Assembly: GCA_964431545.1 (NCBI GenBank)
Contig: CAYSLC010000001.1
Location: forward strand, 44,386 to 108,385
Direction of reading: 5' to 3'
Source: an uncultured Desulfobacteraceae bacterium
GTDB taxonomy: Bacteria; Desulfobacterota; Desulfobacteria; Desulfobacterales; JAABSP01
Length of the DNA stretch: 64,000 bases
The position numbers were made by a program, and so were the translations under genes. Positions within the stretch are counted from its first letter, which is position 1, and the number at the start of each line of letters is the position of its first letter. Positions 1-27,660 of the stretch are shown piece by piece. The notes under the pieces are model-generated. The model made no database searches, was not told the origin of the DNA, and was given only the letters and a program-made list of their open reading frames with translations.

Positions 1-884
<884 letters not shown>

Positions 885-1073
885 TCAGCGGTAGAAAACG
901 CCTACTCCCGGCAACATCTTTCCAAGTCCCCGTGCACGGAGACGCCCATCGAGGTTTCGGAACAAAGAAAATTGGACTTGCCTCGGACCGACCCGTATCC
1001 GTATTATGAGAACAGAGAACCATCAGTCCGCCGAAGGCTTCCCCCCGCGGGGGGCCCTCGCGAGCAAGGAGAG

Positions 1074-1367
1074 ATGCCGCCCATGAACGATCCGACCCGA
1101 AACAACGAAGGTGAAGTGGCCTATATCAAGATCGCGGTATTGGAGAGCCCCTTCGAGGCCCAGGTGGTGGAGGGAATCCTGCGGGAGGAGGAGATCCCCT
1201 TCCTTGTGCGTTCGTACCACGACACCGCCTACGACGGGATCTTCCAGATGCAGAAAGGGTGGGGGGAAATCCGGGCTCCGGCCCCCCACGGCCCGCGGAT
1301 CAAAGAGATTCTTTCCTTTGTGAGAACGGAGAACCATGATATAGAGGATAAAAACGACGAACCTTGA
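1074..1367 (+). CDS. small DUF2007-like protein (putative signal-transducing fold)
   Basis: This is the 3' part of track ORF 36..1367, with an ATG at 1074. The sequence EGEVAYIKIAVLESPFEAQVVEGILREEEIPFLVRSYHD resembles the DUF2007 pattern. The upstream ~340 codons of the track ORF are antisense to mreB and are not credible. Confidence 0.45.
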   Translation: MPPMNDPTRNNEGEVAYIKIAVLESPFEAQVVEGILREEEIPFLVRSYHDTAYDGIFQMQKGWGEIRAPAPHGPRIKEILSFVRTENHDIEDKNDEP

Positions 1368-1527
1368 TTGTCGCCGTGGGGCGGACGGGGGCCGTCGACC
1401 CTGAGCCGGCGAGGACCGAAACGGGAGGGTGAAAAGCAATGGTCCTGGACGGCCCGCCGTTGTCCAGGGGGAAGGCGCCATCCCGCCGGGGGGAAGGATG
1501 ATCCGACTTTGAAAGGAGGTATCTGGT

Positions 1528-2796
1528 ATGTCCGATTTTGAGAATGCCCTGAAAGTGGGCCGACCGCCCAACATCGTCAAGCTGTTTCCCAGTTCCAGGG
1601 CCCTGATCGTCAGCGGAAAGTACATCGATCTCGCCATGCTCGCCAAGGGCGGGACCATCTGCATGGCCGCCAACGGCAGAAGTCACCTGGTCATCCGCGG
1701 GGCCCTCAGGGCGGCCCAACGCGCCAACGCGGCGTTGATCATCGAGATCGCCAAATCCGAAGGGGGCGGGAACGCTTACTGCGCCGTCAACTACTGGAAC
1801 ATCGCCCGGCAGGTGGACGGACTGTGCAACGAGATGGGGATCACCGTTCCGGTGGCCGTCCACGCCGACCATTACGGCATCAAGAGCCAAAAGGACGTGG
1901 AGTCCGCCCGCAAGGAGATCCCCACCCTTTTCGAGTTCGGGATCACCTCCATGTCCATCGACGCCTCCCACATGCCCGATGACGAGAACCTCCTGGCCAG
2001 CCTCGAATTGAAGCCCCTGGTTCCGGAGTGGGCGGGATACGAGACCGAGGTGGGCGAGATCAAGGGCAAGGAGGGGCTCTCCACGGTGGAAGAAGCCCTC
2101 TTTTTGGTCCAGGGCCTCAACGCCCACGGGATCTTCCCCAACTGGATCGCCCTCAACAACGGCACGACCCACGGCATCGAGGCCAGCGACCAGGGCATCC
2201 AGGTGGAGTTGACCGCCGAGATCCACGAGGCGCTTACCCCCTACCGGGTCTCCGGTGCCCAGCACGGCACCTCCGGCAACAGTTCCGACCGCCTCCGCCG
2301 GATCGCGGCGGAGACCCGAACCACCAAAGCCAACGTGGCCACCGCCCTCCAGATGATCTCCTGGGGGGTGGATGTCAACGATTACGGCAACGCGATTCTG
2401 GACGGGTCGGGCAACTTCAGCAAGGTCAAGGGAGAGGGGGTCACCGAGGAACTCTGGGAGGAGATGGTGGCCTATGCCGAGTCGAAGGGATGGAAGAAGG
2501 GGGACTACAAAAAGCTCAATCTGCCCTTCGAAAACAAGATTCTGGGACAGCCCCGGGAGATCCGGGACCGGATGAGCAGGCGGGTGGAGGCGTTCGCCCA
2601 TACCATGATCGCCGACGTGTTCCACGGCCGGGACACCGCCGGGATCGTCATGGATGCCATCCTCAAGGCGGGTTCCCATGATCCCGGGCCAAAGGCCGAG
2701 CGGATCGAGGATCCCAAGGAATGGACCACCGAGACCATCCGCCAGAAGGCCCCGATCCAGGCGGATAAAGGTCCGGCCGGCGACTTCGACGACTGA
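1528..2796 (+). CDS. class II fructose/ketose-bisphosphate aldolase family protein
   Basis: 422 aa. It carries VAVHADHYG and the SGAQHGTSGNS metal/phosphate-binding motifs typical of class II aldolases. A GGAGG-like RBS (aaaggagg) lies upstream of the ATG. Confidence 0.85.
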   Translation: MSDFENALKVGRPPNIVKLFPSSRALIVSGKYIDLAMLAKGGTICMAANGRSHLVIRGALRAAQRANAALIIEIAKSEGGGNAYCAVNYWNIARQVDGLCNEMGITVPVAVHADHYGIKSQKDVESARKEIPTLFEFGITSMSIDASHMPDDENLLASLELKPLVPEWAGYETEVGEIKGKEGLSTVEEALFLVQGLNAHGIFPNWIALNNGTTHGIEASDQGIQVELTAEIHEALTPYRVSGAQHGTSGNSSDRLRRIAAETRTTKANVATALQMISWGVDVNDYGNAILDGSGNFSKVKGEGVTEELWEEMVAYAESKGWKKGDYKKLNLPFENKILGQPREIRDRMSRRVEAFAHTMIADVFHGRDTAGIVMDAILKAGSHDPGPKAERIEDPKEWTTETIRQKAPIQADKGPAGDFDD

Positions 2797-2999
2797 TCCG
2801 CCGAGCCAGGACCGTCCGCCGTCTGTCGATCCCGGTACCGGGTGAAAGGGGCGGACGGTCGCCGATACAGGCTCCGGGCGCGGGTCCGCGCCCGGGGCGA
2901 CGGCCATCCCCCAAGGCCGCGCCCGTTTCCGTCCTCCGCGTCCGCGGCGGACCGCATCCCCGCCCCAACACCCGGCTCCCCCCTCTGATCGCCCCGAGA

Positions 3000-3028
3000 T
3001 TGACAAGCGGCATCGATATTCGTTAAAG
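3000..3028 (+). promoter_or_regulatory. possible sigma-70 promoter (TTGACA-N17-TTAAAG) ahead of the hybrid kinase
   Basis: A perfect -35 TTGACA at 3000-3005, a 17-nt spacer, and a weak -10 TTAAAG at 3023-3028. This is consistent with the downstream TTG start at 3145 rather than the GTG at 3031. Confidence 0.3.
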
Positions 3029-3144
3029 GAGTGGGCGTCGCGAAACTCGGCATCCGGAAAGCGACCTTCGGCCCGAAGAACCATCTTCCGTCATTCCCAC
3101 CGGCATTCGGCTGCAATCGATGTACCATTAAGGGAGACGCCACT

Positions 3145-6100
3145 TTGTCCGAAAGCGGACCCACATCCTCGGATCCCCGTGGGGACGGGTTTCTTCCCGG
3201 AGAGGCCCATGCCGCCTCGGCGGCCCGGCGGCTGATCGTCAGCCTCGGGCTCACCCTGGGGCTGGTTTCCCTCATCGTTATCCCTTTGGGAGCGGTCCTC
3301 TGGTTCAAGGTGGCGGCGCCCCCTCCCCCGGCCCCGGAGGCCTATATCGATTTCATCGCCGGATGCCTGAAACCCGCCCTTCGGGAGGGGGATATGGCGG
3401 CGGTTCAACGGATGGGTCGGCTGTTGATCGAGGATGAGATCGTTTTTTCCCTGGAGCTTACCGATGCCGAGGGTACGCCTTATCTGTCCATCGAGAAGTC
3501 CACTTTCGGAGAAGATTTCGATTCCTCCATGGGATTCCAGGACGTCCGCATCCTCACCGAAGCTGGAAAGACCCTGGCCCGGCTTCGGGTCACCGTTCTT
3601 CCGCCGGATCGGGCCCTTCTGGGACGGCAGGCGCTCTACCTGGCCCTGGGGTGTACGGTCCTCTCCCTGGCGGCCCTGGTATTTCTGGCCGGACGATGGG
3701 TCCAGGTCACCATCGAACGCCCCCTGAATCGACTGGCGGACGGGCTGGGTAACGCCCTCGCCGATTCGGAGGGACCCCCGGTCCGGGGGGTGGTTCACCG
3801 GGAGTTCCTACCCCTGGCCCGTGAGCTGAAGCGGATGGTGGATCGTGCCGGGGAAAGGCTCGGGACTTTGAGGGCGGCCGAGTGGAAATACCGGTCGGTG
3901 TTCGAGACGGCCGAAAAAGGGATGTTCCAGGGGACCGAGGAGGGGCGGCTGATCCGGATCAACCCCGCTTTCGCGGCCATGCTCGGCTACGACGACCCGG
4001 AGGAAGCCATGGACCGGATCGGCGAGGCGGCGCACCGGATGTACGCCACCTTCCGGGACAGCGACGAGATCCGCCACCGGCTTCGGGAGCAGGGGCGGGT
4101 GACCGGCTACGAGACCGAACTGGTGGACCGGTCGGGCCGTCCCTTCCGGGTCGTTCTCAACATCCGCGCGGCCCTGGACCCCCACGGCAACATCCGGTAC
4201 TACGAAGGGTGTGTCACCGACATTTCCGCTCGGTCGGAGCGGGAAAGCCGGTTCACGGAACAGGCCGAAGCCGAGGCGGAAAACCGGGTTCGGGCCGAAC
4301 TGGTGGGCGAGGTCGGATACGAGATCCGGACCCCCATCAACGCCATTCTGGGGTTGGCGGGCATCCTCCTCAAGACCGGCACCACCGCCGCCCAGCGGGA
4401 TTACCTGAGCAAGATCGACGCATCGGCGCGCATCATGCGCGGGGTGGTGGAAGAATTCGTCCGTTCCTCCGAGGAGGACGAACCGCCCAGGATCGAATCC
4501 CGGCCCTTCGGGCTCCGGCATCTGATGGAGCGGCTTTCCGATATCTTCGCGGAGAAGACCGCCAAGAAGCACCTGGAGATGATCACCACCGTCGATGATG
4601 ACGTCCCCGACGCCCTGGAGGGAGACCCCCCGCGGCTGGAGCAGGTCCTGATCCACCTCGTCGACAACGCCGTCAAATTCACCGCCGGGGGGGAGGTGGT
4701 CATCCGGGTCTCCGTCCGGGATATCCGGGCGGACCGGGCGGTCCTCGGCTTTTCCATCCGGGACACGGGGCTGGGGATTCCATCCGACCAGCTTGCGCGG
4801 CTCTTCACACCCGGGAACGGGGACGGGCGGAGGGCCCGGCTCAGCGGCCTCGGCCCGGGCCTGGTGGCCTGCAAACGGTTGATCGAGCTGATGGACGGGG
4901 AGATCGAGGTGGAGACCCAGCCGGACCAGGGCTCCACCTTCTTTTTTACCGCCCGCTTCGGCGTGAGCGCCGACGCGCCGGCGCCGGACCAAGCCCTGCC
5001 CCCGGGCCTGCGGGGGCTGCGGGTGGCGGTGGTGGACGATAACGCGGCGGTCTGCGGGATGCTGGAGGGGCTTCTGACCCGGTTCAACTTCGATCCCCTC
5101 TGCCTCCGGAGCGGGGAGGCGGCCCTGGGGTTCCTGGACGCCGAGGGGGCGGCTCCGGACCTGCTGCTCGTCGACTGGCGCATGCCGGGGATGGACGGCA
5201 TCGAGTTCACCCGGCGGGTGCGCCGCAGGTTCCAGCGCCGGGACCTGCCCATCGTCCTGATGGCCGAGATGGGGGCCGAGGAGATGGCCGAGCGAGCCGC
5301 CGCGGCGGGGGTGGACGGGGTCCTCCTCAAGCCGGTCAAGCCGTCGATCCTCTTCGACACGGTCATGGAGGTCTTCGGCCCCCGGGTTATGGAGGCCTTC
5401 TCCGAGGGCGGGGGCGAGGGGAACCTCTCCGAGGTGGTGGAGCGGATCCGCGGCATACGGGTCCTTCTGGTCGAGGACCACGCGATCAACCGGCAGGTGG
5501 CCGCCCGGATCCTCTCGGGGGCTGACATCCTGGTGGAGACCGCCGGGGACGGGCGAGAGGCGGTGGAAAAAGTGGCGGCCGCCGGCGCCGGGGAGATCCC
5601 CCCCTTCGACGCGGTGCTCATGGACATCCAGATGCCCCGGATGGGAGGGCTTGCGGCCGCGGGCGCCATCCGGGAGGACCCTCGATTTGCCGACCTGCCC
5701 ATCATCGCCATGACCGCCCATACCCTTCCCAGGGACCGCCGGCGGTCTCTGGAGGCGGGGATGAACGACCACGTCACCAAGCCCATCGACGAAGAGGCGC
5801 TCTTCAGAACCCTGGCCCGCTGGGTGAACGGCGGTGAAGGGGATCCTCCGTCGGAGGCCGCGTCCCGTCGGTCCGGGGAGGAGGCTCTCCGGGAGGTCCT
5901 GGACACGGCCCAGGTCCTGGGACGGCTGGGGGGCAACCGACTCCTCTTCGACAAGCTCCTCCGGGACTTTGTCGCCGATCACGGCGATGCGGATCGACGG
6001 ATCCGCGCGGCCCTGGAAAAGGAGGACGAAGACCAGGCGCTGGGGCTGCTTCGGGGACTCAAGGGGGCGGCCGGAAACCTGGCGGCGCGGGAGGTGCACC

Positions 6101-6495
6101 AGGCCGCCCTATCCCTGGAGATGGAGCTGCACCACGGACCCGGAGACCTGGAAGCGTTGCTGGAGGACCTCTGCGAAAGCCACCGCCGCCTGGTGGCGGT
6201 CATCGAGGAGAGGGAGCCCGCGCCGGCGGCCCCTCCATCCCCGGAGGAGGAACGGAAACGCCCCCTGCCCCGGACCCTTCCCCCCATGGTCCGGGAACTC
6301 CACCGGAGCCTGATCGAGGGGGAACTCCCCCCGGAGACGATGCTGGCCGAAATCAAGCGGCTCATGAAGGGCCTCGGCCATCAGGACCGCCTCAACCGCC
6401 TGGGGGATCAGATCCGTCGGTCCCGGATGAAGGAGGCCCGGAACATCCTCGCCACCATCGCCTGGTCCCTGGGCATCTCCCTGGACGGAGAGTGA
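3145..6495 (+). CDS. hybrid sensor histidine-kinase-like protein (TM, PAS, HisKA-like, HATPase, 2x receiver, HPt-like)
   Basis: Track ORF 3031..6495. The GTG at 3031 abuts its GGAG with no spacer. The TTG at 3145 has AAGGGAG 8 nt upstream, so I prefer it. Domains read from the sequence: TM helix LIVSLGLTLGLVSLIVIPLGAVLWF; a PAS region; H-box-like GYEIRTPINAILG; N-box LIHLVDNAVKFT; G-boxes DTGLGIP and GLGPGL. The receivers have LLLVDWRMPGMDG and AVLMDIQMPRMGG. The C-terminal HPt-like segment reads LLRGLKGAAGNLAA. Confidence 0.85.
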   Translation: MSESGPTSSDPRGDGFLPGEAHAASAARRLIVSLGLTLGLVSLIVIPLGAVLWFKVAAPPPPAPEAYIDFIAGCLKPALREGDMAAVQRMGRLLIEDEIVFSLELTDAEGTPYLSIEKSTFGEDFDSSMGFQDVRILTEAGKTLARLRVTVLPPDRALLGRQALYLALGCTVLSLAALVFLAGRWVQVTIERPLNRLADGLGNALADSEGPPVRGVVHREFLPLARELKRMVDRAGERLGTLRAAEWKYRSVFETAEKGMFQGTEEGRLIRINPAFAAMLGYDDPEEAMDRIGEAAHRMYATFRDSDEIRHRLREQGRVTGYETELVDRSGRPFRVVLNIRAALDPHGNIRYYEGCVTDISARSERESRFTEQAEAEAENRVRAELVGEVGYEIRTPINAILGLAGILLKTGTTAAQRDYLSKIDASARIMRGVVEEFVRSSEEDEPPRIESRPFGLRHLMERLSDIFAEKTAKKHLEMITTVDDDVPDALEGDPPRLEQVLIHLVDNAVKFTAGGEVVIRVSVRDIRADRAVLGFSIRDTGLGIPSDQLARLFTPGNGDGRRARLSGLGPGLVACKRLIELMDGEIEVETQPDQGSTFFFTARFGVSADAPAPDQALPPGLRGLRVAVVDDNAAVCGMLEGLLTRFNFDPLCLRSGEAALGFLDAEGAAPDLLLVDWRMPGMDGIEFTRRVRRRFQRRDLPIVLMAEMGAEEMAERAAAAGVDGVLLKPVKPSILFDTVMEVFGPRVMEAFSEGGGEGNLSEVVERIRGIRVLLVEDHAINRQVAARILSGADILVETAGDGREAVEKVAAAGAGEIPPFDAVLMDIQMPRMGGLAAAGAIREDPRFADLPIIAMTAHTLPRDRRRSLEAGMNDHVTKPIDEEALFRTLARWVNGGEGDPPSEAASRRSGEEALREVLDTAQVLGRLGGNRLLFDKLLRDFVADHGDADRRIRAALEKEDEDQALGLLRGLKGAAGNLAAREVHQAALSLEMELHHGPGDLEALLEDLCESHRRLVAVIEEREPAPAAPPSPEEERKRPLPRTLPPMVRELHRSLIEGELPPETMLAEIKRLMKGLGHQDRLNRLGDQIRRSRMKEARNILATIAWSLGISLDGE

Positions 6496-6508
6496 TCCGG
6501 GGTCGGAT

Positions 6509-8014
6509 CTATTCCACGAAGCCGTGTTCGGGATCCCACCGCCGGATCAGGATCTCCTCCGGAAACGCCCGGGGTTTGTAGAGGGATTTCCCCAACAGGA
6601 GCCGGAGGCATTCCTGGATGCTCTCGGAGATGGTGGGGTGGGGGTAGATCAGCTTGAGCACGTCGGCCACCCCCTTGCCCTGGTCCATGAGGTGGGCGAT
6701 GGAGACGATGGTGCTGGAGACCTGGGGGCCGGCGGCCCGCATCCCCAGGATGGTACCGGCCGCGTCGTCGCTGACCAGGATCTTGACAAACCCGTTCAGC
6801 GCCCGCATGGCGATGGCCCGGTTGAGGAGTACATTGGAGTAGTAGGCGACCCGGTAGGGGATCTTCTTCTTCTGGCACGCCTTCTCGTTGAGGCCCACGG
6901 CGGCCACCGCCGGGTGGAAGAACATGACGGTGGACATGTTGCTGTAGTTCAACGGCCACCGGGACCGGTCGAACATGTGCTTGACGGCGTGGCGGCCCTC
7001 CATCTCGGCGATGTTGACCAGGGCGGGGTGGCGGATCACGTCTCCCACCGCGTAGATGGATTCCGCCACCTTGCAATGGTCGTCCGTGTCGAGGTGGCCC
7101 CGTTCGCCGGGACGGATCCCGGCCCGGTCCAGATCGAGGGGGGCGAGGCGGGGGTCCCGGCCGATGGAGATCAGGACCATGTCCACCTCCACCACCCGGG
7201 CGTGGCCGTCGGCGAAATCGAGGACCACCTCCAGGTGGTCCCCGCGTTTCACGATGTCCTTGAGGATGGCCGAATGGATGATCTTGACCCCGTTGCGCTC
7301 CAGGCAGCCGCCGACAAAGGCGCTGACATCCTCGTCCTCGTAGGGGATGATCCGCTCCTGGTGATCCACCAGATAGACCTTGGTCTGCCCGAAGTTGGAG
7401 AAGATGGTGGCGTACTCGCACCCGATGATCCCGGCGCCGATGATCATCAGCCGCTTGGGGAACCGGGATAGGCCCAGGATGCCGTCGGAGTTGAGGATCC
7501 GCTCCTGATCCACGGCGATCCCCTCAAAAGCCCTCGGCTTGGAACCGGTGGCGATGAGGAAGTACCGGGCCTGGATCTCCTCTCCCTCTCCGTCCGGATA
7601 ATCGATCCGGAGGCGGTCCGGGGCGGTGAACGCCCCCCACCCCCGTTTGAGGGTCAGGGAGCCGGGGCCGTCCCAGCGGGGCCGGGAGAAGGTCTCGATC
7701 TGGGAGAGCATCTGGTACTGCTTCTCCTTGACCGCCTGCATCACCGTGGTCCGCATGGCCGAGAAGTCCACCGACAGGCCGGTCGCCCGGTAGCCCCGGT
7801 CCACCTTGGCGGCGATGGCGTAATCCTTGGCCAGCTCCCACATGGTCTTGGAGCCCAGGGCCCCCCACATGACGCCGGCGCCCCCGATCTCGTCCCCCTC
7901 CACGATGCAGACGTGTTTGCCGAGATCCAGGGCCCGGGTGGCCGCGGCGAATCCGCCGGGTCCGCAGCCGATGATGCAAAGATCGAAGGGTTGGTGCGAT
8001 GAGGATGTCGTCAT
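6509..8014 (-). CDS. FAD/NAD(P)-dependent pyridine-nucleotide-disulfide-oxidoreductase family protein (LpdA-like, lacks the redox-active Cys pair)
   Basis: 501 aa. FAD GxGxxG motif DLCIIGCGPGG; NAD site MIIGAGIIGCE; C-terminal HPTISE dimer-interface motif. The position of the GGTCLNxGCIPSK disulfide reads GGAGVMWGALGSK. Confidence 0.8.
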   Translation of the reverse strand: MTTSSSHQPFDLCIIGCGPGGFAAATRALDLGKHVCIVEGDEIGGAGVMWGALGSKTMWELAKDYAIAAKVDRGYRATGLSVDFSAMRTTVMQAVKEKQYQMLSQIETFSRPRWDGPGSLTLKRGWGAFTAPDRLRIDYPDGEGEEIQARYFLIATGSKPRAFEGIAVDQERILNSDGILGLSRFPKRLMIIGAGIIGCEYATIFSNFGQTKVYLVDHQERIIPYEDEDVSAFVGGCLERNGVKIIHSAILKDIVKRGDHLEVVLDFADGHARVVEVDMVLISIGRDPRLAPLDLDRAGIRPGERGHLDTDDHCKVAESIYAVGDVIRHPALVNIAEMEGRHAVKHMFDRSRWPLNYSNMSTVMFFHPAVAAVGLNEKACQKKKIPYRVAYYSNVLLNRAIAMRALNGFVKILVSDDAAGTILGMRAAGPQVSSTIVSIAHLMDQGKGVADVLKLIYPHPTISESIQECLRLLLGKSLYKPRAFPEEILIRRWDPEHGFVE

Positions 8015-8068
8015 GGGGAGGGCCTTGATGCCGATGGGTTTTCGATTCTCGGGAACCTGTATATGCCA

Positions 8069-9370
8069 CTATAAGTCAAAGGCTTTCGGCGCGTCAACAG
8101 GCGATCGGGCGACCTGGGGACGGCCGAAGGCCCGATCCGCCAGATCCCGACGCCTGGGGCGGAAGGTGCCGTCCGTCTTCTCCCGCTCCACCACCCGTTT
8201 GTAGAGCTTGAACATCTTGATCATCTGGGATTCTTCCCGGTAAAAGGTGTCCCAGGCGAACTGGAAGAGTTCCTGGAGCTTCTCCGGCGCCATCTGCTTG
8301 GGCTGGTGGACCACCCGATCGGCCGTGTACCGGTCCCAGTCGTAGGTGAGGATCCGACCCTGGGCGTGGAGGTCGTCCCATGCCTTGGTATGGGGGAAGG
8401 GGGTGAGGACCGTGAACTCGGCCAGATCCAGATCGATCTCCAACAGAAAATCGATCAGCCGCCTGATGTCGTCCTCGGAATGGCTGTCGAGCCCCAGAAG
8501 GATGGTCCCCTCCACGGCGATACCGTGGTCGTGGTACCGGCGGATGCGATCCCGGATCTTGTTGGAGGTGTCGAAGACCGCCTGGTAGACGTACCAGGCT
8601 CCGGCCCGGGCGGCGAGGTCGAGCACCTCGGGGTCGTCCTCGATGGGGTGGCTGCACCATTTCTTCTTCAGGGGGATCATCTCCCGGAAGAGGTCCTTCT
8701 CCCATTGGGTGTCCTGGGCCAGGGAGTTGTCCACGATGAAGAGGCGGTTGTTGTCGATGGCCGCCATCTCCGCCACCGCCTTGTCGATGGGCCGGGGCCG
8801 GAACCGTCGCCCCCCCAGATAGGCCACCGCGCAGGGGTAGCAGTGGAACCGGCATCCCCGGGAGGCGTGGACCAGGTCGAACATCTGCAGGCCCTTGTAG
8901 TTATAGAGATCCCGGTTGAGGATGTCCCGGCGGGCGGTCCCCACCCATTCGATGGGGGGAGGGTCCTGGAGATGATCGTAGACCGGCTTCAGCATGCCCC
9001 GCTCCAGGTCGGACAGGACCTGTTCCATGCGCCCCTCGGCCTCTCCGAGGAAGACGGCGTCCACGTGCCCTCGGGTCTCCTCGGCGTGGAGCATGGTGGC
9101 GATCCCGCCCGAGATCACCGGAACCCCCCGCCGCCGGAAGGCGTCGGCGATCTCCCATCCCCGTTTGACCTGGGAGGTGAGCATCATGGAAAGGGCCACC
9201 AGGTCCGCGGGTTCGTCGAAATCGACGGCCTCCAGGTTCTCGTCGGTGAAGGAGATCTCCACGGTTCCGGGCAGGGCCGCCGCAAAGACCACGGGGCCGT
9301 GGGGGGGAAGGTGGAACTCGGTCTGGCCGGTCAGTTTCGGCCATCTGGGGTAGATCAGTTTGATTTTCAC
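8069..9370 (-). CDS. B12-binding-domain radical SAM protein
   Basis: 433 aa. The N-terminal Rossmann-like B12 domain reads MKIKLIYPRW..DLVALSMM..ISGG. The radical-SAM cluster motif is SRGCRFHCYPC (CX3CX2C). Confidence 0.85.
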   Translation of the reverse strand: MKIKLIYPRWPKLTGQTEFHLPPHGPVVFAAALPGTVEISFTDENLEAVDFDEPADLVALSMMLTSQVKRGWEIADAFRRRGVPVISGGIATMLHAEETRGHVDAVFLGEAEGRMEQVLSDLERGMLKPVYDHLQDPPPIEWVGTARRDILNRDLYNYKGLQMFDLVHASRGCRFHCYPCAVAYLGGRRFRPRPIDKAVAEMAAIDNNRLFIVDNSLAQDTQWEKDLFREMIPLKKKWCSHPIEDDPEVLDLAARAGAWYVYQAVFDTSNKIRDRIRRYHDHGIAVEGTILLGLDSHSEDDIRRLIDFLLEIDLDLAEFTVLTPFPHTKAWDDLHAQGRILTYDWDRYTADRVVHQPKQMAPEKLQELFQFAWDTFYREESQMIKMFKLYKRVVEREKTDGTFRPRRRDLADRAFGRPQVARSPVDAPKAFDL

Positions 9371-9411
9371 GGATCGCGCTCTCTGTTATTGTGAAAAGAC
9401 CCTGGGGAGCG

Positions 9412-10068
9412 TCAACGGGACAACCCGTCGACCTCCAGGAGTTTCAGGTGGAGGGCGTAGGCGTGGGGGCCGTGGGCGATCAGGTCCACCCGTCCGGGGA
9501 GGGGGCCGTCCGGCGGCCCGGCCCGCACCGTCCGGATCAGCCGCCGGTTCCGGTAACGCCGGATCCGCCACCCGCCCCCGGGGTCGACCCGCACGTCCAC
9601 CACCTCCTCTTTCCCCGTCCGATACCGGCAGACCGGCGCGCCGGACTTCGAGAGGCCGACGGCGGTTCGAGGCCCGACAGGGGCCAAAAAGGCCAGCCGG
9701 ATATCCGCCACCACGCCTCGGGCCGCCTCCGGGGCGTCGAAGGGGGGGATCCCCCGCCGGATGACCGTCTCGCCCCGCCGGTGGACCGCTTCCAGCACCA
9801 CCAGCCCCTCCACGGTCATCATGGCGAATTCGATGGACCGGTCCCGGGGATCGATGGCGCTGGCGCCGATCAGAAGCCCCTTGCGGCCGCCGGGAAAATC
9901 GGCCTCGATGGCGTGGACCATCCGCCATCCCATTCGGGGGAAGGCCTGTTCGCAGGCCGCGCGGATCTCCGCGGTCCTTTCGGGGGCGGCCGGCTCCAGT
10001 TGCGGAAGGGCGGCGCAGCCCGCGAGCCAGAGGGCAAGGAGGAGCGCCCCCGAAAGTCTCGGCTTCAC
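9412..10068 (-). CDS. lipoprotein of unknown function (possibly DUF3261/ApeN-like)
   Basis: Signal peptide plus lipobox MKPRLSGALLLALWLAGC. Its position directly after a LolA-like gene matches aryl-polyene-type clusters. The family assignment is from memory of that architecture only. Confidence 0.6.
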   Translation of the reverse strand: MKPRLSGALLLALWLAGCAALPQLEPAAPERTAEIRAACEQAFPRMGWRMVHAIEADFPGGRKGLLIGASAIDPRDRSIEFAMMTVEGLVVLEAVHRRGETVIRRGIPPFDAPEAARGVVADIRLAFLAPVGPRTAVGLSKSGAPVCRYRTGKEEVVDVRVDPGGGWRIRRYRNRRLIRTVRAGPPDGPLPGRVDLIAHGPHAYALHLKLLEVDGLSR

Positions 10069-10724
10069 CGGACCTTCCGGAAGAGGGCGTCGTCCAGATC
10101 GGGATTGAGGACCGTCTCCCGGAAGGTGAGCCGGGTATAGGAATCCGCTCCCTCGTAGATGGAGACCGATTCCATGACCCCCGGGGTCTCCGAGAGCTGA
10201 AGCACGATCCGATCGATGATCCGGCCCATGGAGGGCTGCCGGGGGGTGAGGACGATCTCCCCGCCGGCGGAGAGGACGGCCTCGAAGTCGGGGTTCTCAT
10301 TGAACCGCCCCCGGAGCCACCTGGAGATCTCCCCCATCACCACCCGCATCGACTGGAGCCGGGCGGTATCCTCCTCCACCAGGCCCGCCTCGCCCTCGAT
10401 GAATCGTCGAACCCCGCCGTCGGCCATGAGCAGGATCGATCGGACCGGCTCGGTATACTCCCACCGCAGCGCGCCGTCGGTCCGGAAATAAAAGACCCCT
10501 TTGGAGACCAGGGGCCGGGCGAGGATCTTCATGTGTTTCTCCTGGATGAAATCGGCCCGGACGGACCGGATTCCCTCGACCCCCTCCCGGATCTCCTTCC
10601 AGGTGCCGCCCCAACCGAGGCAGAGGAGGGCGGTCGAAAGGAGGGCGCACGCGGCTGCAAGCCGAAGGAACCCCGGGTGTCGGTGGCTGTCGCCGGTCCG
10701 GACCGCCGGCTTTCCCGCCTTCAC
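10065..10724 (-). CDS. LolA-like outer-membrane lipoprotein/lipid carrier protein
   Basis: This is the C-terminal 219 codons of track ORF 10065..11228. A GTG at 10724 overlaps the fabG stop (GTGA). The hydrophobic leader reads FLRLAAACALLSTALLCLG. The body, IRSVRADFIQEKHMKILARPLVSKGVFYFRTDGALRWEYTEP, fits the LolA fold family. The longer track ORF overlaps fabG and is an artefact. Confidence 0.7.
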   Translation of the reverse strand: MKAGKPAVRTGDSHRHPGFLRLAAACALLSTALLCLGWGGTWKEIREGVEGIRSVRADFIQEKHMKILARPLVSKGVFYFRTDGALRWEYTEPVRSILLMADGGVRRFIEGEAGLVEEDTARLQSMRVVMGEISRWLRGRFNENPDFEAVLSAGGEIVLTPRQPSMGRIIDRIVLQLSETPGVMESVSIYEGADSYTRLTFRETVLNPDLDDALFRKVR

Positions 10725-11458
10725 ACCATCCCCCCGTTGACGGAGATCACCTGTCCGGTGACATAGGATGCCTGGTCGGAGCAGAGGAACCGGACCACGG
10801 CGGCCACCTCCTCTGGCCGACCCACCCGCGCCATCGGAATCATCGCCTTGATCTCCTTGACCGGAGCCCCTTCGATCATCTCGGTGTCGATGAGGCCGGG
10901 AGCCACCACGTTGACCCGGATCCCCAGGCGCGCCACCTCGGCGGCCACCGACCGGCTCGCCCCGATCAGGCCGGCCTTGGCGGCGGCATAGTTGGCCTGC
11001 CCCCGGTTGCCCACCAGACCGGCCACCGAGGCGATGGAGACCACCGCCCCCCGTTTCCGGGGGAGCATCGCCTTGAGGACCGGCCGGGTCATGTTGTAGA
11101 ACCCTTTCAGGGTCGTGTCGACCACCCGGTCCCAGTCCGGGGCCTCCATCATGATGAAGAGCTGGTCCGCCGTCACCCCGGCGTTGTTGACCAGGACCTC
11201 CACCGGCGCGGACCGGGAGAGAATCCACTCCAGGGCCCCGGTGCAGGCCGCGGAATCGGAGACGTCGAACCCGGCGGCCGTCCCGTCCCCCCCCGCCTCC
11301 CGGACGAGCCGGAGCGTCTCTTCGGCGGACCCGGCGTCCGACCGGTAGGTGATGATGAGGAAATGCCCAGCCCGGGCCAGGGCCACCGCTATCGCCCGTC
11401 CGATGCCCCTGCCGGCCCCCGTTACGATGGCCGTGGTCCTATCCGACGTCTTCGCCAT
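10721..11458 (-). CDS. fabG: 3-oxoacyl-ACP reductase (SDR)
   Basis: 245 aa. TGAGRGIG cofactor motif, NNAG, the catalytic S..YAAAK triad and a C-terminal VNGGM, as in classical FabG. Confidence 0.9.
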   Translation of the reverse strand: MAKTSDRTTAIVTGAGRGIGRAIAVALARAGHFLIITYRSDAGSAEETLRLVREAGGDGTAAGFDVSDSAACTGALEWILSRSAPVEVLVNNAGVTADQLFIMMEAPDWDRVVDTTLKGFYNMTRPVLKAMLPRKRGAVVSIASVAGLVGNRGQANYAAAKAGLIGASRSVAAEVARLGIRVNVVAPGLIDTEMIEGAPVKEIKAMIPMARVGRPEEVAAVVRFLCSDQASYVTGQVISVNGGMV

Positions 11459-11960
11459 CCGCCTTCTCCTTCTCCCCCCGCATCACCTGGAGGGTCACCG
11501 ATCCGATCACCGCCTCCGGATCGCCGGCCCGGCAGACCCCGTGGATCTCGGTGTAGTTGTCCATGTTGAACCGAATCTCCGCCCGGGTGGTGATCCGGCT
11601 GCCGGCCGGGATCGGGTCCGCCGGAAAAACGGCCGACTTGATTCCCACCAGCCATCCGCTGCCCACGGCGGCTCCCGTCTCCATCAGCTCCTTCCACCCG
11701 ATGGAGACCGCCGCCGACTGGGCCACCAGCTCCACCAGCACCAGGGGGTGGATCCCCGTTTCCGACGCCAGCGGCCAGTTGGGACCGGCCGTCGATTCCG
11801 TTGTGGCCGCGTCCGTCTCCACGCCGAGGATCCGGTCCACCAATTTCATCCGATCCCGGTGGGGAATGAGCCGTTCGATGGGGATGTCGATCACCTCCGC
11901 CTCCCGATGGGAAACGCCCGTTGAAAAACTGTTGAAAACCGATTCCAAAACCGATAACAT
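11439..11960 (-). CDS. hotdog-fold 3-hydroxyacyl-ACP dehydratase-like protein
   Basis: 173 aa. LIPHRDRMKLVDRIL matches the (l)PHR.P..lvD active-site stretch of FabA/ApeI-type dehydratases. It overlaps the fabG start by 20 nt. Confidence 0.7.
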   Translation of the reverse strand: MLSVLESVFNSFSTGVSHREAEVIDIPIERLIPHRDRMKLVDRILGVETDAATTESTAGPNWPLASETGIHPLVLVELVAQSAAVSIGWKELMETGAAVGSGWLVGIKSAVFPADPIPAGSRITTRAEIRFNMDNYTEIHGVCRAGDPEAVIGSVTLQVMRGEKEKADGEDVG

Positions 11961-12073
11961 CCAAGGTCGTTTTTTTTACAATAATTTCTATTTTCTGTAA
12001 AGAAACAACTCGATATTCCGCCCCAGCCGCGGCGGGAACACCCAAATCGTCAAAACAAATCCTGGAAGGATCG
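11961..12073. promoter_or_regulatory. AT-rich divergent promoter region of the lipid cluster
   Basis: A 113-nt gap between divergent operons. It contains the AT-rich stretch ttttttttacaataatttctattttctgtaaagaaacaac in an otherwise GC-rich locus. No specific -35/-10 assignment is made. Confidence 0.4.
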
Positions 12074-12340
12074 ATGGACGCATTACTGGAAGAGCTGAAG
12101 ACCAAAATCATCGAGACCCTCAACCTGATCGACGTGACCCCCGCCGACATCGGGAAGGAGGATCCCCTGGTGGGGGGTAAGCTGGGGATCGACTCCATCG
12201 ATGTCCTCGAACTGGTGATGATGATCGAAAAGGACTACGGGGTCCGGATCGACAACAAGGAGGTGGGGGCGAAGGTCTTTTCCACCCTCGGCTCCATGGC
12301 CCGACACATCGAAGCACACGCATCGGGGCTCCCCAACTGA
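12074..12340 (+). CDS. acyl carrier protein 1
   Basis: 88 aa. It has the phosphopantetheine attachment motif LGIDSIDVLELV (DS motif) and a GGAAGGA RBS. Confidence 0.85.
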   Translation: MDALLEELKTKIIETLNLIDVTPADIGKEDPLVGGKLGIDSIDVLELVMMIEKDYGVRIDNKEVGAKVFSTLGSMARHIEAHASGLPN

Positions 12341-12447
12341 GGGCATCCGGTTCCCGCTGAATCCGCGATATTCTCCCCCAGGCTCCGGTCTTCGCCAAAC
12401 AGGACCGAGGAAGGGCCGGGGGCTGTTTTGCCGAGCTTGAATGCGCT

Positions 12448-13827
12448 ATGAAGGTCCTCCTGGTCTCCGCCAATACCCTCACCGCCCCCTATCCGGTTTA
12501 CCCTCTGGGGCTGGACCATGTGGCCGCCGCCCTCCGTCCGGACCATGCCGTGCGGGTGGCCGATCTCAACCCCCTGGGGGGAAACGGAGCCCTGGGCCGG
12601 GCGGTGGCCGATTTCGCTCCGGACGTGGTGGGGCTCTCCCTGCGCAACATCGACAACACCGACGCCGCAGACCCCCGGAGTTTCGTCGACCGGTACCGGG
12701 AGATTGCGGAGACGGTCCGCCGGAACACCAGCGCCCCCTTGATTCTGGGGGGCAGCGGCTTCACCCTCTTTCCGGCGGAACTGATGAAAGCCCTTTCCGC
12801 CGACTACGGGATCGTGGGGGAGGGGGAGCGGCTGAAACCCTTCCTGGACCGATTGGACCGTGGAAGGGACCCAAAGGGATCGGAAGGACCCGAGGCCTTG
12901 GAGGGGGTGATCGCCGCAGGCGGGCGGAACGGACCCGCGGCACCCTGGAACGGCGCTTTCCACCGGAGGGCGACCCCCGCCGGGGACCAGGTGCGATACT
13001 ATCTGGACCGAGGCGGGATGCTCAACCTTCAGACCAAGCGGGGGTGCCCCTTCCGGTGCGTCTACTGCACCTATCCCCACATCGAGGGGCGTCGAATGCG
13101 GCCCATCCCGCCGGAGGATGTGGCCCGCACCGCCATGGCGCTCCAACGGGCCGGCGCCAGGTACCTGTTTATTACCGATTCGGCCTTCAACGCGGACGAG
13201 GATCACAGCCTGGCGGTGGCCCGGGCTTTCCGGGCCGCCGGGCTGTCCATCCCCTGGGGGGGCTTCTTCATGCCCATCCGGCCGCCGGACGGCTACTATG
13301 CGGACCTGGCGGCGGCGGGATTGTCCCATGTGGAGTTCGGCACCGAATCGCTTTCGGACCGGGTCCTGGAATCTTACGGAAAGCCCTTCAAGACCGCGGA
13401 CGCCCTGGCGGCCCACCGGCAAAGCGTGGCCGCCGGTATCCCCGTGGCCCATTACCTGCTGCCGGGGGGACCGGGGGAGACCCCCGAGACCTTGGAGAAG
13501 ACGCTTTCCACCGTTGACAAACTGGCGGGAGCCGTCCTATTTTTCTTCTGTGGAATGCGGATCTATCCACACACGAAACTCTATGAAATCGCTTTGAAAG
13601 AGGGCCGGATATCCTCCGACCGGGATCTTCTGGCCCCGGTCTTCTATGCCTCTCCGGCCATCTCTTCATCCGAGATCATGGGCCGGATCCGGGAGAAGGC
13701 CCGGGGTCGGGCCAACTGGATCTTCGGCGCCGGAGGGGAGGAGACCGCCCGGATCCTGGCGCGGCTTTACGAGCGGGGGTATACCGGCCCGCTGTGGGAG
13801 CAGTTGATCCCCGGGGCGGGGGCCTGA
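12448..13827 (+). CDS. B12-binding-domain radical SAM protein (lipid-biosynthesis type)
   Basis: 459 aa. The N-terminal B12-like domain reads MKVLLVSAN..VVGLSLRN..ILGGSG. The cluster motif is KRGCPFRCVYC. It sits directly between an ACP and a FabZ-like gene. Confidence 0.85.
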   Translation: MKVLLVSANTLTAPYPVYPLGLDHVAAALRPDHAVRVADLNPLGGNGALGRAVADFAPDVVGLSLRNIDNTDAADPRSFVDRYREIAETVRRNTSAPLILGGSGFTLFPAELMKALSADYGIVGEGERLKPFLDRLDRGRDPKGSEGPEALEGVIAAGGRNGPAAPWNGAFHRRATPAGDQVRYYLDRGGMLNLQTKRGCPFRCVYCTYPHIEGRRMRPIPPEDVARTAMALQRAGARYLFITDSAFNADEDHSLAVARAFRAAGLSIPWGGFFMPIRPPDGYYADLAAAGLSHVEFGTESLSDRVLESYGKPFKTADALAAHRQSVAAGIPVAHYLLPGGPGETPETLEKTLSTVDKLAGAVLFFFCGMRIYPHTKLYEIALKEGRISSDRDLLAPVFYASPAISSSEIMGRIREKARGRANWIFGAGGEETARILARLYERGYTGPLWEQLIPGAGA

Positions 13828-23019: not shown

Positions 23020-23448
23020 CTACCACCCCTTGGCCGACATGATCTTCTTGAGCTTCTCCTCGGTCTTCTTGTCCACGAGAATCATCTTCTGGGCCCGGGC
23101 CTGTCTGATCTTCTCCGTCAGCGCGTTCATGTCGATGGGCTTTTCCAGGAAGTCCATGGCACCGAGCTTCATGGCCTCCACCCCCTTTTCCACGGTGGCG
23201 TGGCCGGTGAGAAGGATCACCTGGAGGTCGGGGTTCTTCTCCTTGAGGGCGGCCAGGGCCTCGATGCCGTCCATCTCCGGCATCATCAGATCGAGCACCA
23301 CCGCGTCGTAGTCTCCCGCCTGGGCCTGTTTCAGGGCCTCGACGGCGGATGAGGAAGTGGATACATCGATTCCCCGGGCCTTCATCCGTTCGGACATGGC
23401 GTCGAGGAATTCGGTCTCGTCGTCGACGAGAAGCACTTTGTCACTCAT
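23020..23448 (-). CDS. single-domain response regulator (receiver) with short C-terminal tail
   Basis: VLLVDDE, AVVLDLMMPEMDG, ILLTGH and FLEKP mean all phospho-acceptor pocket residues are present. Confidence 0.9.
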   Translation of the reverse strand: MSDKVLLVDDETEFLDAMSERMKARGIDVSTSSSAVEALKQAQAGDYDAVVLDLMMPEMDGIEALAALKEKNPDLQVILLTGHATVEKGVEAMKLGAMDFLEKPIDMNALTEKIRQARAQKMILVDKKTEEKLKKIMSAKGW

Positions 23449-23526
23449 GATCGGCTCCTTTCGATAATTGGTATGCCTACATCCGGACGCGGTGGGGGGA
23501 TCCGAGGCCGTACCGACGGGATCGGA

Positions 23527-24177
23527 TCAATCGGGGAAGGCCACGGTGATCTTCCCGGCCCCGGCGTCGACCCGGACATCGGCGCTCAACAGCTCCATGA
23601 TCCGGGCCTCCCGTTCGCCGGGGAAGGCGGCGGCCGCCTCGGCCAGGGCGGTCAGGCCCGTGAAGGTCACGGCGGGTCCGTCCTCCCCCTGCTCCACGGC
23701 GATGGCCACGGACTTTCCGGCCCCGGCCGCGTCCAGGGACTGGTCGAGGCACTGGAACAGGAGGTTCTCGAGGAAATACGGGTTGGTGGTCACCGTCACC
23801 GGTGAGGGCGGCGGGGTGTAGGCCACGGTTACGTTCTTGTTCGAAATGAATCGGTTGGACAGGGAGACCACCAGACCCACGACATCCCCGAGATCCGTCT
23901 GGGAGACCGGTTCGTCCACGCTGTGGGAGAAGCGGTTCATCCGCCTGACGATATCGTCCGCCCGGCGTACTTGCTTCAGGAGATTCCCGGCCAATTTCTT
24001 CAGGCGTTCGGGCTCGATGGTCTTCCCCTTCTCCGCCATGAAACAGAAATCTTCCAGAAGCCCCGCGTTTTCGTTGAGGATGGCCAAGGCGTTCTTGATT
24101 TCATGGGAGATGGATGCCGAGATCTTTCCGAAGAACTGCAGACCGGTTTCGGCGAGGGGGTCGGGACGTTGTTCCAT
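23527..24177 (-). CDS. short cytoplasmic HisKA protein with degenerate ATP-binding domain
   Basis: 216 aa. The H-box ISASISHEIKNALAIL is present. The expected N-box reads NLLFQCLDQSL and no clear DxGxG/GxGxG boxes are seen (EQGEDGPAVTFTGLTALAE). Confidence 0.7.
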   Translation of the reverse strand: MEQRPDPLAETGLQFFGKISASISHEIKNALAILNENAGLLEDFCFMAEKGKTIEPERLKKLAGNLLKQVRRADDIVRRMNRFSHSVDEPVSQTDLGDVVGLVVSLSNRFISNKNVTVAYTPPPSPVTVTTNPYFLENLLFQCLDQSLDAAGAGKSVAIAVEQGEDGPAVTFTGLTALAEAAAAFPGEREARIMELLSADVRVDAGAGKITVAFPD

Positions 24178-24189
24178 GGACAGGCTCCT

Positions 24190-24543
24190 TTACTCGTTGA
24201 GGGCTTCTTCCATTCTTTCCACCAGGGCCTCCAGCTTGACCGGCTTCACAAGGTAGTGGGAGGCGTCCGTTGAACCGGCCCGGAAATCCTCTTCGGACCC
24301 ATGCCCCGTCATGAAGATGAACTTCATCTCCGGATGGCGTTCCCGAAGGCGTTTCATCAGGCTGATGCCGCCCATCTTGGGCATCTTTACGTCGAGCACC
24401 GCCACATTGTAGTTCTTTTTTTCAGCCAGTTCCAGGGCCTCGTGTCCGGAAGTGGCCCAGTCCGCTTCGATCCCCCTGAAAGAGAGCCGCTCGGCCAGCG
24501 TGGCCACCAGCTCCCGTTCATCGTCCACCAGCAATGCAATCAC
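24190..24543 (-). CDS. single-domain response regulator
   Basis: GTG start. ALLVDDE, VAVLDVKMPKMGG, IFMTGH and YLVKP are present. Confidence 0.9.
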   Translation of the reverse strand: MIALLVDDERELVATLAERLSFRGIEADWATSGHEALELAEKKNYNVAVLDVKMPKMGGISLMKRLRERHPEMKFIFMTGHGSEEDFRAGSTDASHYLVKPVKLEALVERMEEALNE

Positions 24544-24547
24544 CTTG

Positions 24548-26281: not shown

Positions 26282-26365
26282 TCCACAACTCTGACGAGGG
26301 GTTGATATGACTCAACGGGAAATGTCCCGCCGAGCGGTCCGGCGATCCGGAAGGATGGTTCGGGA

Positions 26366-26830
26366 TCAGTCCTCGTCTTTGTCCATGATGTCCTTGGCGG
26401 TGTCGAACTCGCCGGCCTCGGCAAAGGTGGCCGCCATGATCGATTTGTCGATCTTTTTCTTGTAGGCGGTGCGGATGGTGCTGACGATGGTCTCGATATC
26501 GGCCGGTTTCTGAAGATACTCGAAGGCGCCCAGCTTTCGGGCTTCCTTTTCATCTTTCTCCGAACCATGGCCGGTGAGCATGATCACCTGAACCTGGGGA
26601 TAGGCCTTCTTGACCCGCCGTAAAACCTCCATGCCGTCGATTCCGGGCATCTTGAGGTCGAGAATCATGACATCCGGAACTTCGTCCTTCACGACCTTGA
26701 GGGCCTGTTCCCCGTCATAAGCGATGTCCGAACCGAGGTTCCGCATCTCGATCCGCTCGGACAGGGTCTTGACGAACTCCTCTTCGTCGTCCACCAAAAG
26801 GACCTTGATGTTTTCCTTATCTTTTCCCAT
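26366..26830 (-). CDS. response regulator (receiver) with C-terminal MAATFAEAGE-motif tail
   Basis: The start is taken at MGKDKENIKVLLVDDE (ATG 26830). DVMILDLKMPGIDG, IMLTGH and YLQKP are present. The tail reads KSIMAATFAEAGEFDTAKDIMDKDED. Confidence 0.85.
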   Translation of the reverse strand: MGKDKENIKVLLVDDEEEFVKTLSERIEMRNLGSDIAYDGEQALKVVKDEVPDVMILDLKMPGIDGMEVLRRVKKAYPQVQVIMLTGHGSEKDEKEARKLGAFEYLQKPADIETIVSTIRTAYKKKIDKSIMAATFAEAGEFDTAKDIMDKDED

Positions 26831-27386
26831 CGTTCTCTCCCTTCTGATCTCCCGTGAGTCGGGTGGTTTTTCCCTCGGCTCCGGCATCGCCGGACGGCGC
26901 CGCGGGGGACTTTTCGATGAACGCCAGGGCCGTTTCCGGCTCCCCAGCCTCCGCGAAGGCGGCGGCCATCATGGCGTCCTGGTAGCGCTTGAAAAACGAC
27001 CTCTTTGTCCGCTCCCCGGACGTCTTGCGCTGGTAGGCCTCCTTGATGCGCTCCACCAGCTTCTTGACATCGAAGGGGACGAAGAAATCGTCGAAGGCCC
27101 CCAGTTTCATGCCCTCGATGGAGAGGGAGAGCTGGGCGGCCCCGTTGAGCAGGATGACCTCGGTCAGCGGGTTGAGCTTCTTGATCTGCCGTAGCAGGGT
27201 CAGCCCCTCCTCCCTCAACCCGCCGAGGCTCAACAGCACCACGTCGATCTTATGATGTCGGATCGTTTTCTTCAACCCTGCCGCGCCGTCGGACTCGAAT
27301 ACCCGAAACGGATCGGTCTCCAGGCGCTGTTGCAGACTTCGCCTGAAGAACCGGTCCGAATCGATGATCAGAAGGTTGATCCCCAT
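26817..27386 (-). CDS. pseudo-receiver protein with C-terminal MMAAAFAEAGE-motif tail
   Basis: The fold is receiver-like (MGINLLIIDSD..). However, the acceptor position reads VVLLSLGG (Asp to Ser), the Thr position reads ILLNG and the Lys position reads FFVPF. The tail reads DAMMAAAFAEAGEPETALAFI. Confidence 0.8.
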   Translation of the reverse strand: MGINLLIIDSDRFFRRSLQQRLETDPFRVFESDGAAGLKKTIRHHKIDVVLLSLGGLREEGLTLLRQIKKLNPLTEVILLNGAAQLSLSIEGMKLGAFDDFFVPFDVKKLVERIKEAYQRKTSGERTKRSFFKRYQDAMMAAAFAEAGEPETALAFIEKSPAAPSGDAGAEGKTTRLTGDQKGENDGKR

Positions 27387-27415
27387 GAGTGAGCGCGGTT
27401 GCCCGCTACATACGG

Positions 27416-27598: not shown

Positions 27599-27660
27599 GG
27601 TGTTCTCCTTTTTTCATCCATGTGGGTTATCGATGCCACCTTTTCGATGACAGATAACGA

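Follow-up and report, generated by a model that had tools for sequence, protein, structure and literature searches.

We analysed a 64,000-nucleotide stretch of DNA from an uncultured Desulfobacteraceae bacterium (contig CAYSLC010000001.1 of assembly GCA_964431545.1), called here the window, and within it a hybrid sensor kinase gene (3145-6495, + strand) from which both phosphorylatable histidines are missing. The His of the H-box is replaced by Tyr and that of the C-terminal HPt domain by Arg. The reading that we prefer, with a confidence only slightly better than even, is that its product is a histidine pseudokinase anchored in the membrane, which would have arisen from a canonical sensor-PAS-DHp-CA-REC-REC-HPt kinase (DHp, the HisKA domain; CA, the HATPase_c domain; REC, receiver) by stepwise dismantling of the phosphorelay. 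As judged from its residues, the kinase alone cannot run a standard His-Asp-His relay.

The acceptor columns and the domains around them

By homology to what is collected in Pfam and NCBIfam, the protein is similar to the BarA/TorS/ArcB-like HK-REC-REC-HPt kinases (HK, histidine kinase). All these matches were below the equivalog cut-offs, the nearest families were BarA, TorS, ArcB, LuxQ, and RcsC, and 1293 relatives were obtained at E <= 1e-20. The sequence comparison places the kinase as a descendant of this family that fails two of its defining functional features, both histidines. The open reading frame (ORF) is open over 3031-6495 (+), and the in-frame GTG at 3031 would yield 1154 aa; from the TTG at 3145, which is the start in the database entry for this kinase (P0001/P0121, 1116 aa), the product has 1116 aa. 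Residues are numbered throughout from 3031 and not from this TTG. The layout is TM-sensor-TM-PAS-DHp-CA-REC-REC-HPt (TM, transmembrane segment), followed by a four-helix tail. Two hydrophobic segments, TM1 and TM2, flank a periplasmic stretch of ~100 aa (3220-3714), and Pfam assigns residues 286-400 (3886-4230) to the PAS domain.

The DHp domain is formed by residues 412-492 (4264-4506), and within it Pfam recognized HisKA at 422-479 with 36.0 bits. Tyr430 (TAC, 4318-4320) was located in the phospho-His column by alignment with the solved kinases 7z8n, 7p8e, and RetS 6dk7 (...sHEIRTPlN... versus ...gYEIRTPiN...), and the family census confirmed the column predicted for this substitution: it holds His in 307 of 311 proteins and in all the 166 fetched loci, the exceptions including the kinase (Tyr) and a protein described below, P0265 (Phe). 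A different nearby His was considered as the acceptor and rejected, because the DHp helices contain no His anywhere. According to the original prediction, everything in the H-box other than the His matched the consensus. This is correct for the residues after the Tyr, where the ExxT motif (E431, T434) is retained. It is not correct for those before it, where the near-invariant FLANMS has become LVGEVG, nor in helix 2, where LL..NDILD.SKIEAG has become MR..EEFVR.SEEDE, with SEEDEP in the place of SKIEAG at the DHp-CA linker.

The extent of this remodelling was measured with domain profiles made from ~119 relatives, with the kinase excluded, which were scored twice, the second time with out-of-sample canonical members of the family. 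In the DHp profile the kinase reached 60.5 bits and the relatives 137 ± 7 (z = -10.4; -11.4 in the repeat). Taking into account that the out-of-sample canonical members gave z = -0.4 to -3 per domain, with a few individual values lower, the DHp score of the kinase is a real outlier. Of the 21 class-conserved positions of the DHp core, 17 remain hydrophobic and 4 keep the consensus residue; by this pattern, the strongly remodelled DHp is a repacked hairpin, amphipathic still, and not a randomised one.

The CA domain (residues 493-645, 4507-4965; Pfam HATPase_c 531-642) scored 170 bits, with the relatives at 211 ± 10 (z = -4.1, repeat -4.8). None of the relatives scored under the kinase in the DHp profile or in the CA profile, and in the latter it stood below all 119 of them. 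The N and G boxes of this domain had been said to look intact, and this holds for N546, D578xGxG, and G606xGxG, together with which F592 is retained, but it does not extend to N542H, G605S, T607L, L609P, and I613A. The F-box and the ATP lid are rewritten, and the lid segment F.QAD.STTRKYGG is absent.

Considering that the Mg-binding Asn546, the DxGxG of G1, and the GxGxG of G2 are kept in the CA domain, and that the Tyr lies exactly at the acceptor position, it could be argued that the chemistry was altered rather than lost. Tyr430, or another residue, would be autophosphorylated and drive signalling, as it was first proposed for DivL, a protein originally called a tyrosine kinase in a work cited by PMC12189002. 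We regard this as very improbable. DivL has no autokinase activity in vitro and the phosphorylation of its Tyr is dispensable (PMC4211667); in the kinase, the DHp-CA linker is degenerate, as is the ATP lid, and the DHp helices offer no other His. The transfer from phospho-Tyr to Asp is, moreover, outside the known two-component chemistry.

The two receivers, whose Asp pockets were predicted to be intact, proved to be so. Receiver 1 (residues 662-782, 5014-5376; Response_reg 664-781) has D669, D670, D715, and K767, and the sole change in its pocket is a Thr to Ala substitution in a column that is variable in the family. Receiver 2 (residues 809-930, 5455-5820; Response_reg 811-927) is complete, with E815, D816, D865, T895, and K917, which makes 9 of the 10 pentad residues intact in both receivers together. 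The scores were 141.1 bits for REC1 (relatives 135.0 ± 17.6; z = +0.35, repeat -0.1) and 155.0 bits for REC2 (relatives 165.1 ± 9.8; z = -1.0, repeat -1.8).

The HPt-fold domain covers residues 958-1050 (5902-6180). Arg1008 (CGG, 6052-6054) is found in the phospho-His column, K1011 and G1012 are present, and the domain is otherwise typical of the family. The Pfam Hpt match (976-1048) had 22.6 bits with a cut-off of 24.6. In our profile, built from the HPt domains of the relatives, the kinase reached 91.4 bits (84-91 bits over the two scorings) and the relatives 88.6 ± 10.1 (z = +0.28, repeat -0.5); by profile, it is as good as any canonical HPt. In an alignment with 98 relatives, the Arg1008 column contained 96 His and 2 apparent Arg, and the latter (P0035 and P0042) were discarded as alignment slips of ...RAHTLRG.... 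The census gave His in 258 of 266 proteins and in 156 of 156 fetched loci, with exceptions in the kinase (Arg), P0132, P0272, and P0273 (Gln), P0265 (Phe), and P0091 (Asp).

When the HPt region was compared with the PDB by phmmer, no match was obtained. The AlphaFold model of residues 954-1154 had a mean pLDDT of 92.1 and placed Arg1008 midway along a helix, and its best structural matches were all HPt domains: 3MYF (TM-score 0.79-0.80, 1.9-2.0 Å), HptB 7C1I, BarA 3IQT, and ArcB 2A0B. According to this model, the C-terminal region of the kinase folds as an HPt in which Arg stands where the acceptor His would be, as had been proposed, and the alignment and the profile agree with it. H1023 was also considered as an alternative acceptor and rejected, since its column is not His in the relatives.

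The C-terminal four-helix module that follows the HPt (6262-6492) deserves a separate description. A module of this kind, ~75 aa long, is found after the HPt in at least 70 relatives (e.g., P0134, P0025, and P0036), with the conserved motif (D/N)(F/Y)D(F/Y)xxAxxxLxxIA. AlphaFold modelled it with pLDDT 90 and pTM 0.80. It had no Pfam family and no sequence match in the PDB, and none of its structural matches was significant (best E 0.87). The domain is thus widespread and so far undescribed.

Syntenic orthologues and a proposed order of the losses

A second assembly, GCA_054920695.1 (L001), is 99.79% identical to positions 1-11718 of the window, with 25 mismatches, and carries the same Tyr and Arg. 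As a separate observation, 15 of the 25 differences lie within 1.6 kb (9775-11378), with adjacent doublets at 9775/9776, 10515/10516, and 11237/11238; this cluster may mark a tract of recombination or else reflect the quality of the assemblies.

Homologues of the kinase at 42-99% identity were not found in any of the collections searched, which comprised 5.8 billion clusters at 90% identity, 1.84 billion representatives in an exhaustive HMMER scan, and, as whole-protein scans, 185,579 species genomes (the source species not among them) and 241 million metagenome records. The species genomes and the metagenome records gave only paralogues at <=42% identity, the top ones mostly from Desulfobacterota-like metagenome-assembled genomes. 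The exhaustive scan gave a subfamily having the N-terminal sensor and the C-terminal tail of the kinase. P0132, the member closest to the kinase, is by position its orthologue in GCA_054920495.1 (L082), where the order is orf97, class-II aldolase, SBP_bac_3, kinase, and a convergent Pyr_redox gene. The order in the window is the same without the SBP_bac_3 gene. It was also the same for P0272 (92% to P0132; L083 and L084) and P0273 (78%; L085). The orf97 of this series, located in the window at 1074-1367 (+), is a conserved 97-aa ORF with no Pfam family that lies directly 5' of the aldolase gene in all related genomes.

The SBP_bac_3 gene (L082 7149-7988, L083 5149-5988, L084 2827-3666, and L085 1015-1854), which codes for a periplasmic solute-binding protein, ends in every genome of the sister clade 13 nt 5' of the kinase start, in an operon-like arrangement. 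In the window its place is taken by an intergenic gap (2797-3144), in which no remnant of the gene was detectable.

The sister-clade sequences (P0132, P0272, P0273, and the NCBI/ENA/JGI cluster members) are canonical both in the H-box, SHEIRTPMNAV, and in the DHp as a whole; Pfam HisKA scored 74 bits in these orthologues versus 36 bits in the kinase. Throughout them, the HPt His column is occupied by Gln (CAG), and in P0273 the Lys and the Gly of HxxKG are lost as well. All the sister-clade sequences have the lid stem RMFRVDRRG, after which comes a loop of variable sequence; the rewritten state of the lid is shared with the kinase, and so is the drop in the CA score (z ~ -5). Since the sister orthologues keep the H-box His yet carry the Gln and the same rewritten lid, the HPt His and the canonical ATP lid would have been lost first, in the common ancestor and before the split of the lineages, with the change of the HPt His to Gln.

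A second step would be specific to the lineage of the kinase. In it, Gln would have been replaced by Arg and the H-box His by Tyr, the surface of the DHp hairpin remodelled with retention of its hydrophobic core, the periplasmic sensor left to near-neutral drift, and the neighbouring SBP_bac_3 gene lost. The change from CAG in the orthologues to CGG at Arg1008 is one transition, and the shortest codon path at this column is His (CAY) > Gln (CAG) > Arg (CGG). Taking into account that the family members and the syntenic orthologues all have His, the H-box Tyr is read as a convergent change specific to this lineage.

These results modify two points of the original prediction. One was that orthologues uniformly carrying His would suggest a sequencing error or a strain-specific mutation. 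The orthologues are uniformly His in the H-box, but Tyr and Arg are not sequencing errors, because the second assembly agrees and the whole DHp is remodelled, and the same observations speak against a fresh point mutation. The other was that a dead HPt combined with the Tyr is not a standard phosphorelay; the kinase lacks a His-Asp-His relay of its own, as said, but the HPt loss is ancestral to the orthologue clade, where Gln is found, and is not peculiar to the Tyr lineage. The locus is thus a natural syntenic series with His/His in the family, His/Gln with an altered lid and the SBP_bac_3 gene present in the sister clade, and Tyr/Arg with a remodelled DHp and the SBP_bac_3 gene lost in the kinase. 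From these three states it would be possible to read in what sequence a phosphorelay protein is taken apart, with the receivers still intact.

The rates of change were compared between the window and L082, where the identity was 79.4% for the aldolase, 71.0% for Pyr_redox, 60% for orf97, and 39.4% for the kinase. An overall acceleration of the kinase in its lineage was rejected, given that the kinase/Pyr_redox ratio of nonsynonymous divergence (dN) was 4.4 in the sister clade and 3.0 for the kinase versus the clade; only the distribution of change among the kinase domains is unusual. Versus P0132, dN was 1.09 in the sensor (with synonymous divergence, dS, of ~1.1), 0.82 in the tail, 0.64 in HPt, 0.59 in PAS, 0.56 in CA, 0.47 in REC1, 0.46 in DHp, and 0.44 in REC2. 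The sensor of the kinase has 14-25% identity to each family member, and the other members have 34-46% among themselves.

In the sister clade, dN/dS was 0.07-0.16 in REC1, 0.14-0.25 in DHp, 0.17-0.31 in REC2, 0.19-0.23 in the sensor, 0.29-0.33 in CA, 0.35-0.46 in the tail, and 0.40-0.96 in HPt, with 0.08-0.12 in the flanking aldolase and Pyr_redox genes. The constraint on the sister-clade HPt is relaxed, though not gone.

Proposed mode of action, alternatives, and related loci

In the mechanism that we propose, the kinase would be incapable of His autophosphorylation and of exporting phosphate through its own HPt. The receivers would be the input, taking the phosphoryl group from the DHp or HPt of another kinase or from small-molecule donors, and once phosphorylated they would act as a phosphate sink or as a switch, in the manner of REC2 in RetS. 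On the DHp with its Tyr and on the HPt with its Arg, receiver domains would dock without any transfer of phosphate, comparable to DivL and AHP6. It is possible that the DHp keeps a transmitter-phosphatase activity through ExxT. The periplasmic input was probably abandoned, because the SBP_bac_3 gene is lost and the dN of the sensor is close to its dS.

Several observations weigh against this proposal. The Tyr lineage is known from one species only. The HPt without His is the fastest-evolving domain of the sister clade, so that a conserved docking role for it would be putative. No other HPt was found in the 64-kb window that could act as a partner. The retention of ExxT is no proof of activity, since DivL, the precedent for the Tyr, has no phosphatase activity. 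The remaining ones are at the same time what a decaying relic would present, that is, a gene whose relay and SBP_bac_3 partner are gone and which is functionless, with a frameshift or stop not yet acquired. The loss of the partner gene is compatible with decay, and so are the dN/dS values of ~1.0 in the sensor and 0.9-1.1 in the tail versus P0132, although dS is saturated in this comparison and such per-domain ratios are unreliable and indicative at most. The single mismatch between the window and L001 in the gene, P939H in the REC2-HPt linker, is non-synonymous. In favour of the relic one can add the scores of the DHp (z = -11) and the CA (z = -5) and the outcome of a scan for sigma-70 promoters and terminators, which gave nothing useful and no consensus promoter. 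Long spurious ORFs are, in addition, easily formed in G+C-rich DNA: the gene itself contains antisense ORFs of 763 aa (3808-6099, -) and 517 aa (4401-5954, -), typical artefacts in DNA of 65-70% G+C, so that by itself an open frame says less about selection here than it usually does, and its weight as evidence is low.

We consider a relic, which is the main rival reading, unlikely, nevertheless, on account of the way in which the changes are distributed. Decay is not uniform, as REC1, REC2, and HPt score as canonical with 9 of the 10 receiver pentad residues in place, and the hydrophobic pattern of the DHp is retained at 17 of 21 positions. The pairwise dN of DHp, REC1, and REC2 (0.43-0.47) is well under dS. 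The frame is intact across all eight domains, and over 3.35 kb the differences from the orthologues are all in-frame, despite a dS of at least 0.75 between the flanking genes and those of the sister clade. The G+C content at third codon positions is 0.85, which resembles the adjoining genes, and a Shine-Dalgarno-like AAGGGAG (3130-3136, +) is found 8 nt 5' of the TTG at 3145.

The window contains, at 23023-31685 (-), a dense two-component cluster without HPt. It is formed by two dCache-HisKA-HATPase kinases (24551-26311 and 28173-29996), each accompanied by stand-alone receivers (23023-23526, 24193-24570, 26369-26968, 26820-27527, and 27799-28284), and a sigma-54 activator of PAS-AAA-HTH type (30255-31685), all of them on the - strand. 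Lacking an HPt, this cluster could phosphorylate the receivers of the pseudokinase only by direct DHp-to-REC transfer.

Considering that both receiver pockets are intact, the protein could also be a conduit and not a sink or scaffold. As a relay intermediate, its receivers would take phosphate from a partner kinase, perhaps bound by heterodimerisation via the remodelled DHp, and hand it on to a response regulator or a stand-alone HPt encoded elsewhere. The supply of phosphate from hybrid kinases to separate HPt proteins is known, for instance in the case of HptB (PMC5992135), and the repacked DHp core could mean a new dimerisation partner. This we judge rather improbable, as neither the 64-kb window nor its two-component cluster has an HPt gene, and the retention of the kinase's own HPt fold without His would be left unexplained.

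A more far-reaching idea is that the Tyr and the Gln/Arg bond the aspartyl phosphate, by H-bond or salt bridge, without accepting it, and that DHp and HPt would act as a reader or latch for the receivers of the same protein once these are phosphorylated. We put it forward as a speculation that is improbable to about the same degree as the relay intermediate, if not a shade more. If true, the protein would be a self-contained phospho-Asp sensor driven by another kinase, with its output through PAS or the C-terminal four-helix module.

The double loss is not unique to the kinase. P0265/P0390 (L087 6001-9864, Logan SRR14069905; found in three samples) comes from an unrelated metagenome and has the architecture dCache_3, three PAS, HisKA, HATPase_c, REC, and HPt. 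Both of its acceptor columns hold Phe, in the H-box FLAAMGFEIRTPLN and in the HPt LATQAFDLNN. It is otherwise canonical in the DHp (HisKA 56.5 bits) and in the lid, RKYGGTGLGL, and its receiver is intact. By sequence, this is an independent double His loss in a lineage unrelated to the kinase. In both lineages without the H-box His, that of the HPt is missing as well, whereas P0091 and the sister clade have lost the HPt His alone. From P0265 it would seem that the two histidines are prone to joint loss and, if the reader or latch idea were true, its Phe/Phe would make the doubly His-less hybrids a recurrent functional class and not debris. P0091 (JGI, 1455 aa), a hybrid kinase, has a canonical H-box and, in an otherwise good HPt at 1352-1434 (43 bits), Asp in the His column (LERAADSLRGS).

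On the 3' side of Pyr_redox there is a lipid-type gene run (8069-13452, -), with a B12-binding radical SAM enzyme, a LolA-like protein, a FabG-type reductase (10721-11458, -), and a hotdog-fold ORF (11439-11960, -). It resembles aryl-polyene or unusual-lipid clusters.

Comparison with known pseudokinases

Histidine pseudokinases are few and known mostly from single-case studies (DivL, RetS, and PsmA). In the plant protein AHP6, a stand-alone pseudo-HPt, the His is replaced by Asn and the protein is a competitive inhibitor. By analogy, the kinase shares with it an HPt fold without the acceptor His in which the rest of the HxxKG helix is kept, and it may be able to bind receivers without taking up phosphate. 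The HPt of the kinase differs in being bacterial, fused to receivers, with Arg in the column (Gln in the orthologues), and under relaxed constraint in the sister clade.

In DivL of Caulobacter crescentus, the H-box His is replaced by Tyr550, there is no kinase or phosphatase activity, and the DHp binds phosphorylated DivK (PMC4211667). The likeness to DivL that was originally pointed out is correct as regards the Tyr, which falls exactly where the phospho-His of a HisKA DHp would be, in a DHp whose fold is retained, and a pseudokinase or scaffold is also our best reading; from this precedent, a loss of autokinase with retained receiver docking would be expected for the kinase. It is not correct as regards descent. 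The homology is limited to the generic kinase core, and DivL 4q20 was only the seventh or eighth of the PDB matches, below GacS, RetS, and plant kinases. DivL is a multi-PAS, non-hybrid protein without receivers or HPt, whereas the kinase belongs to the BarA/TorS/ArcB-like family, its orthologues have His, and its Tyr is recent and lineage-specific, with the DHp around it remodelled.

RetS of Pseudomonas aeruginosa does not autophosphorylate; the Asp of its REC2 is a phosphate sink, HExxT confers phosphatase activity, and it inhibits its partner by core-to-core contact (PMC5992135). Both RetS and the kinase are membrane hybrid sensors in which two receivers stand in tandem and ExxT is kept, with an intact receiver Asp that could be a phosphate sink; the ATP-binding domain of the kinase, like that of RetS, may be compromised. 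RetS has the H-box His and is without G boxes, and the kinase is without the His and has the G-box glycines, so that the motif HExxT of the former is YExxT in the latter. The 7TMR-DISMED2 sensor of RetS, which has no HPt, also differs from the two TM helices, small periplasmic segment, and HPt fold of the kinase.

Two other hybrids have lost the H-box His. PsmA of Streptomyces, a conserved histidine pseudokinase, acts via protein-protein interaction (PMC12963549) and is unrelated to the kinase at the family level. In CCNA_03265 of Caulobacter the receiver Asp is kept, and another kinase was suggested as the phosphodonor (PMC11481889). A His-less core with an intact receiver is common to this protein and the kinase, but CCNA_03265 has a single receiver and no pseudo-HPt, and a nearby His may substitute there, which is not available in the kinase.

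By comparison with these systems, the kinase stands outside the families of DivL and RetS, and what it has in common with them is a likely mode of action and nothing more. Other pseudokinases of such a general type exist; the novelty lies in an architecture with two receivers and neither His, together with an order of loss that can be reconstructed.

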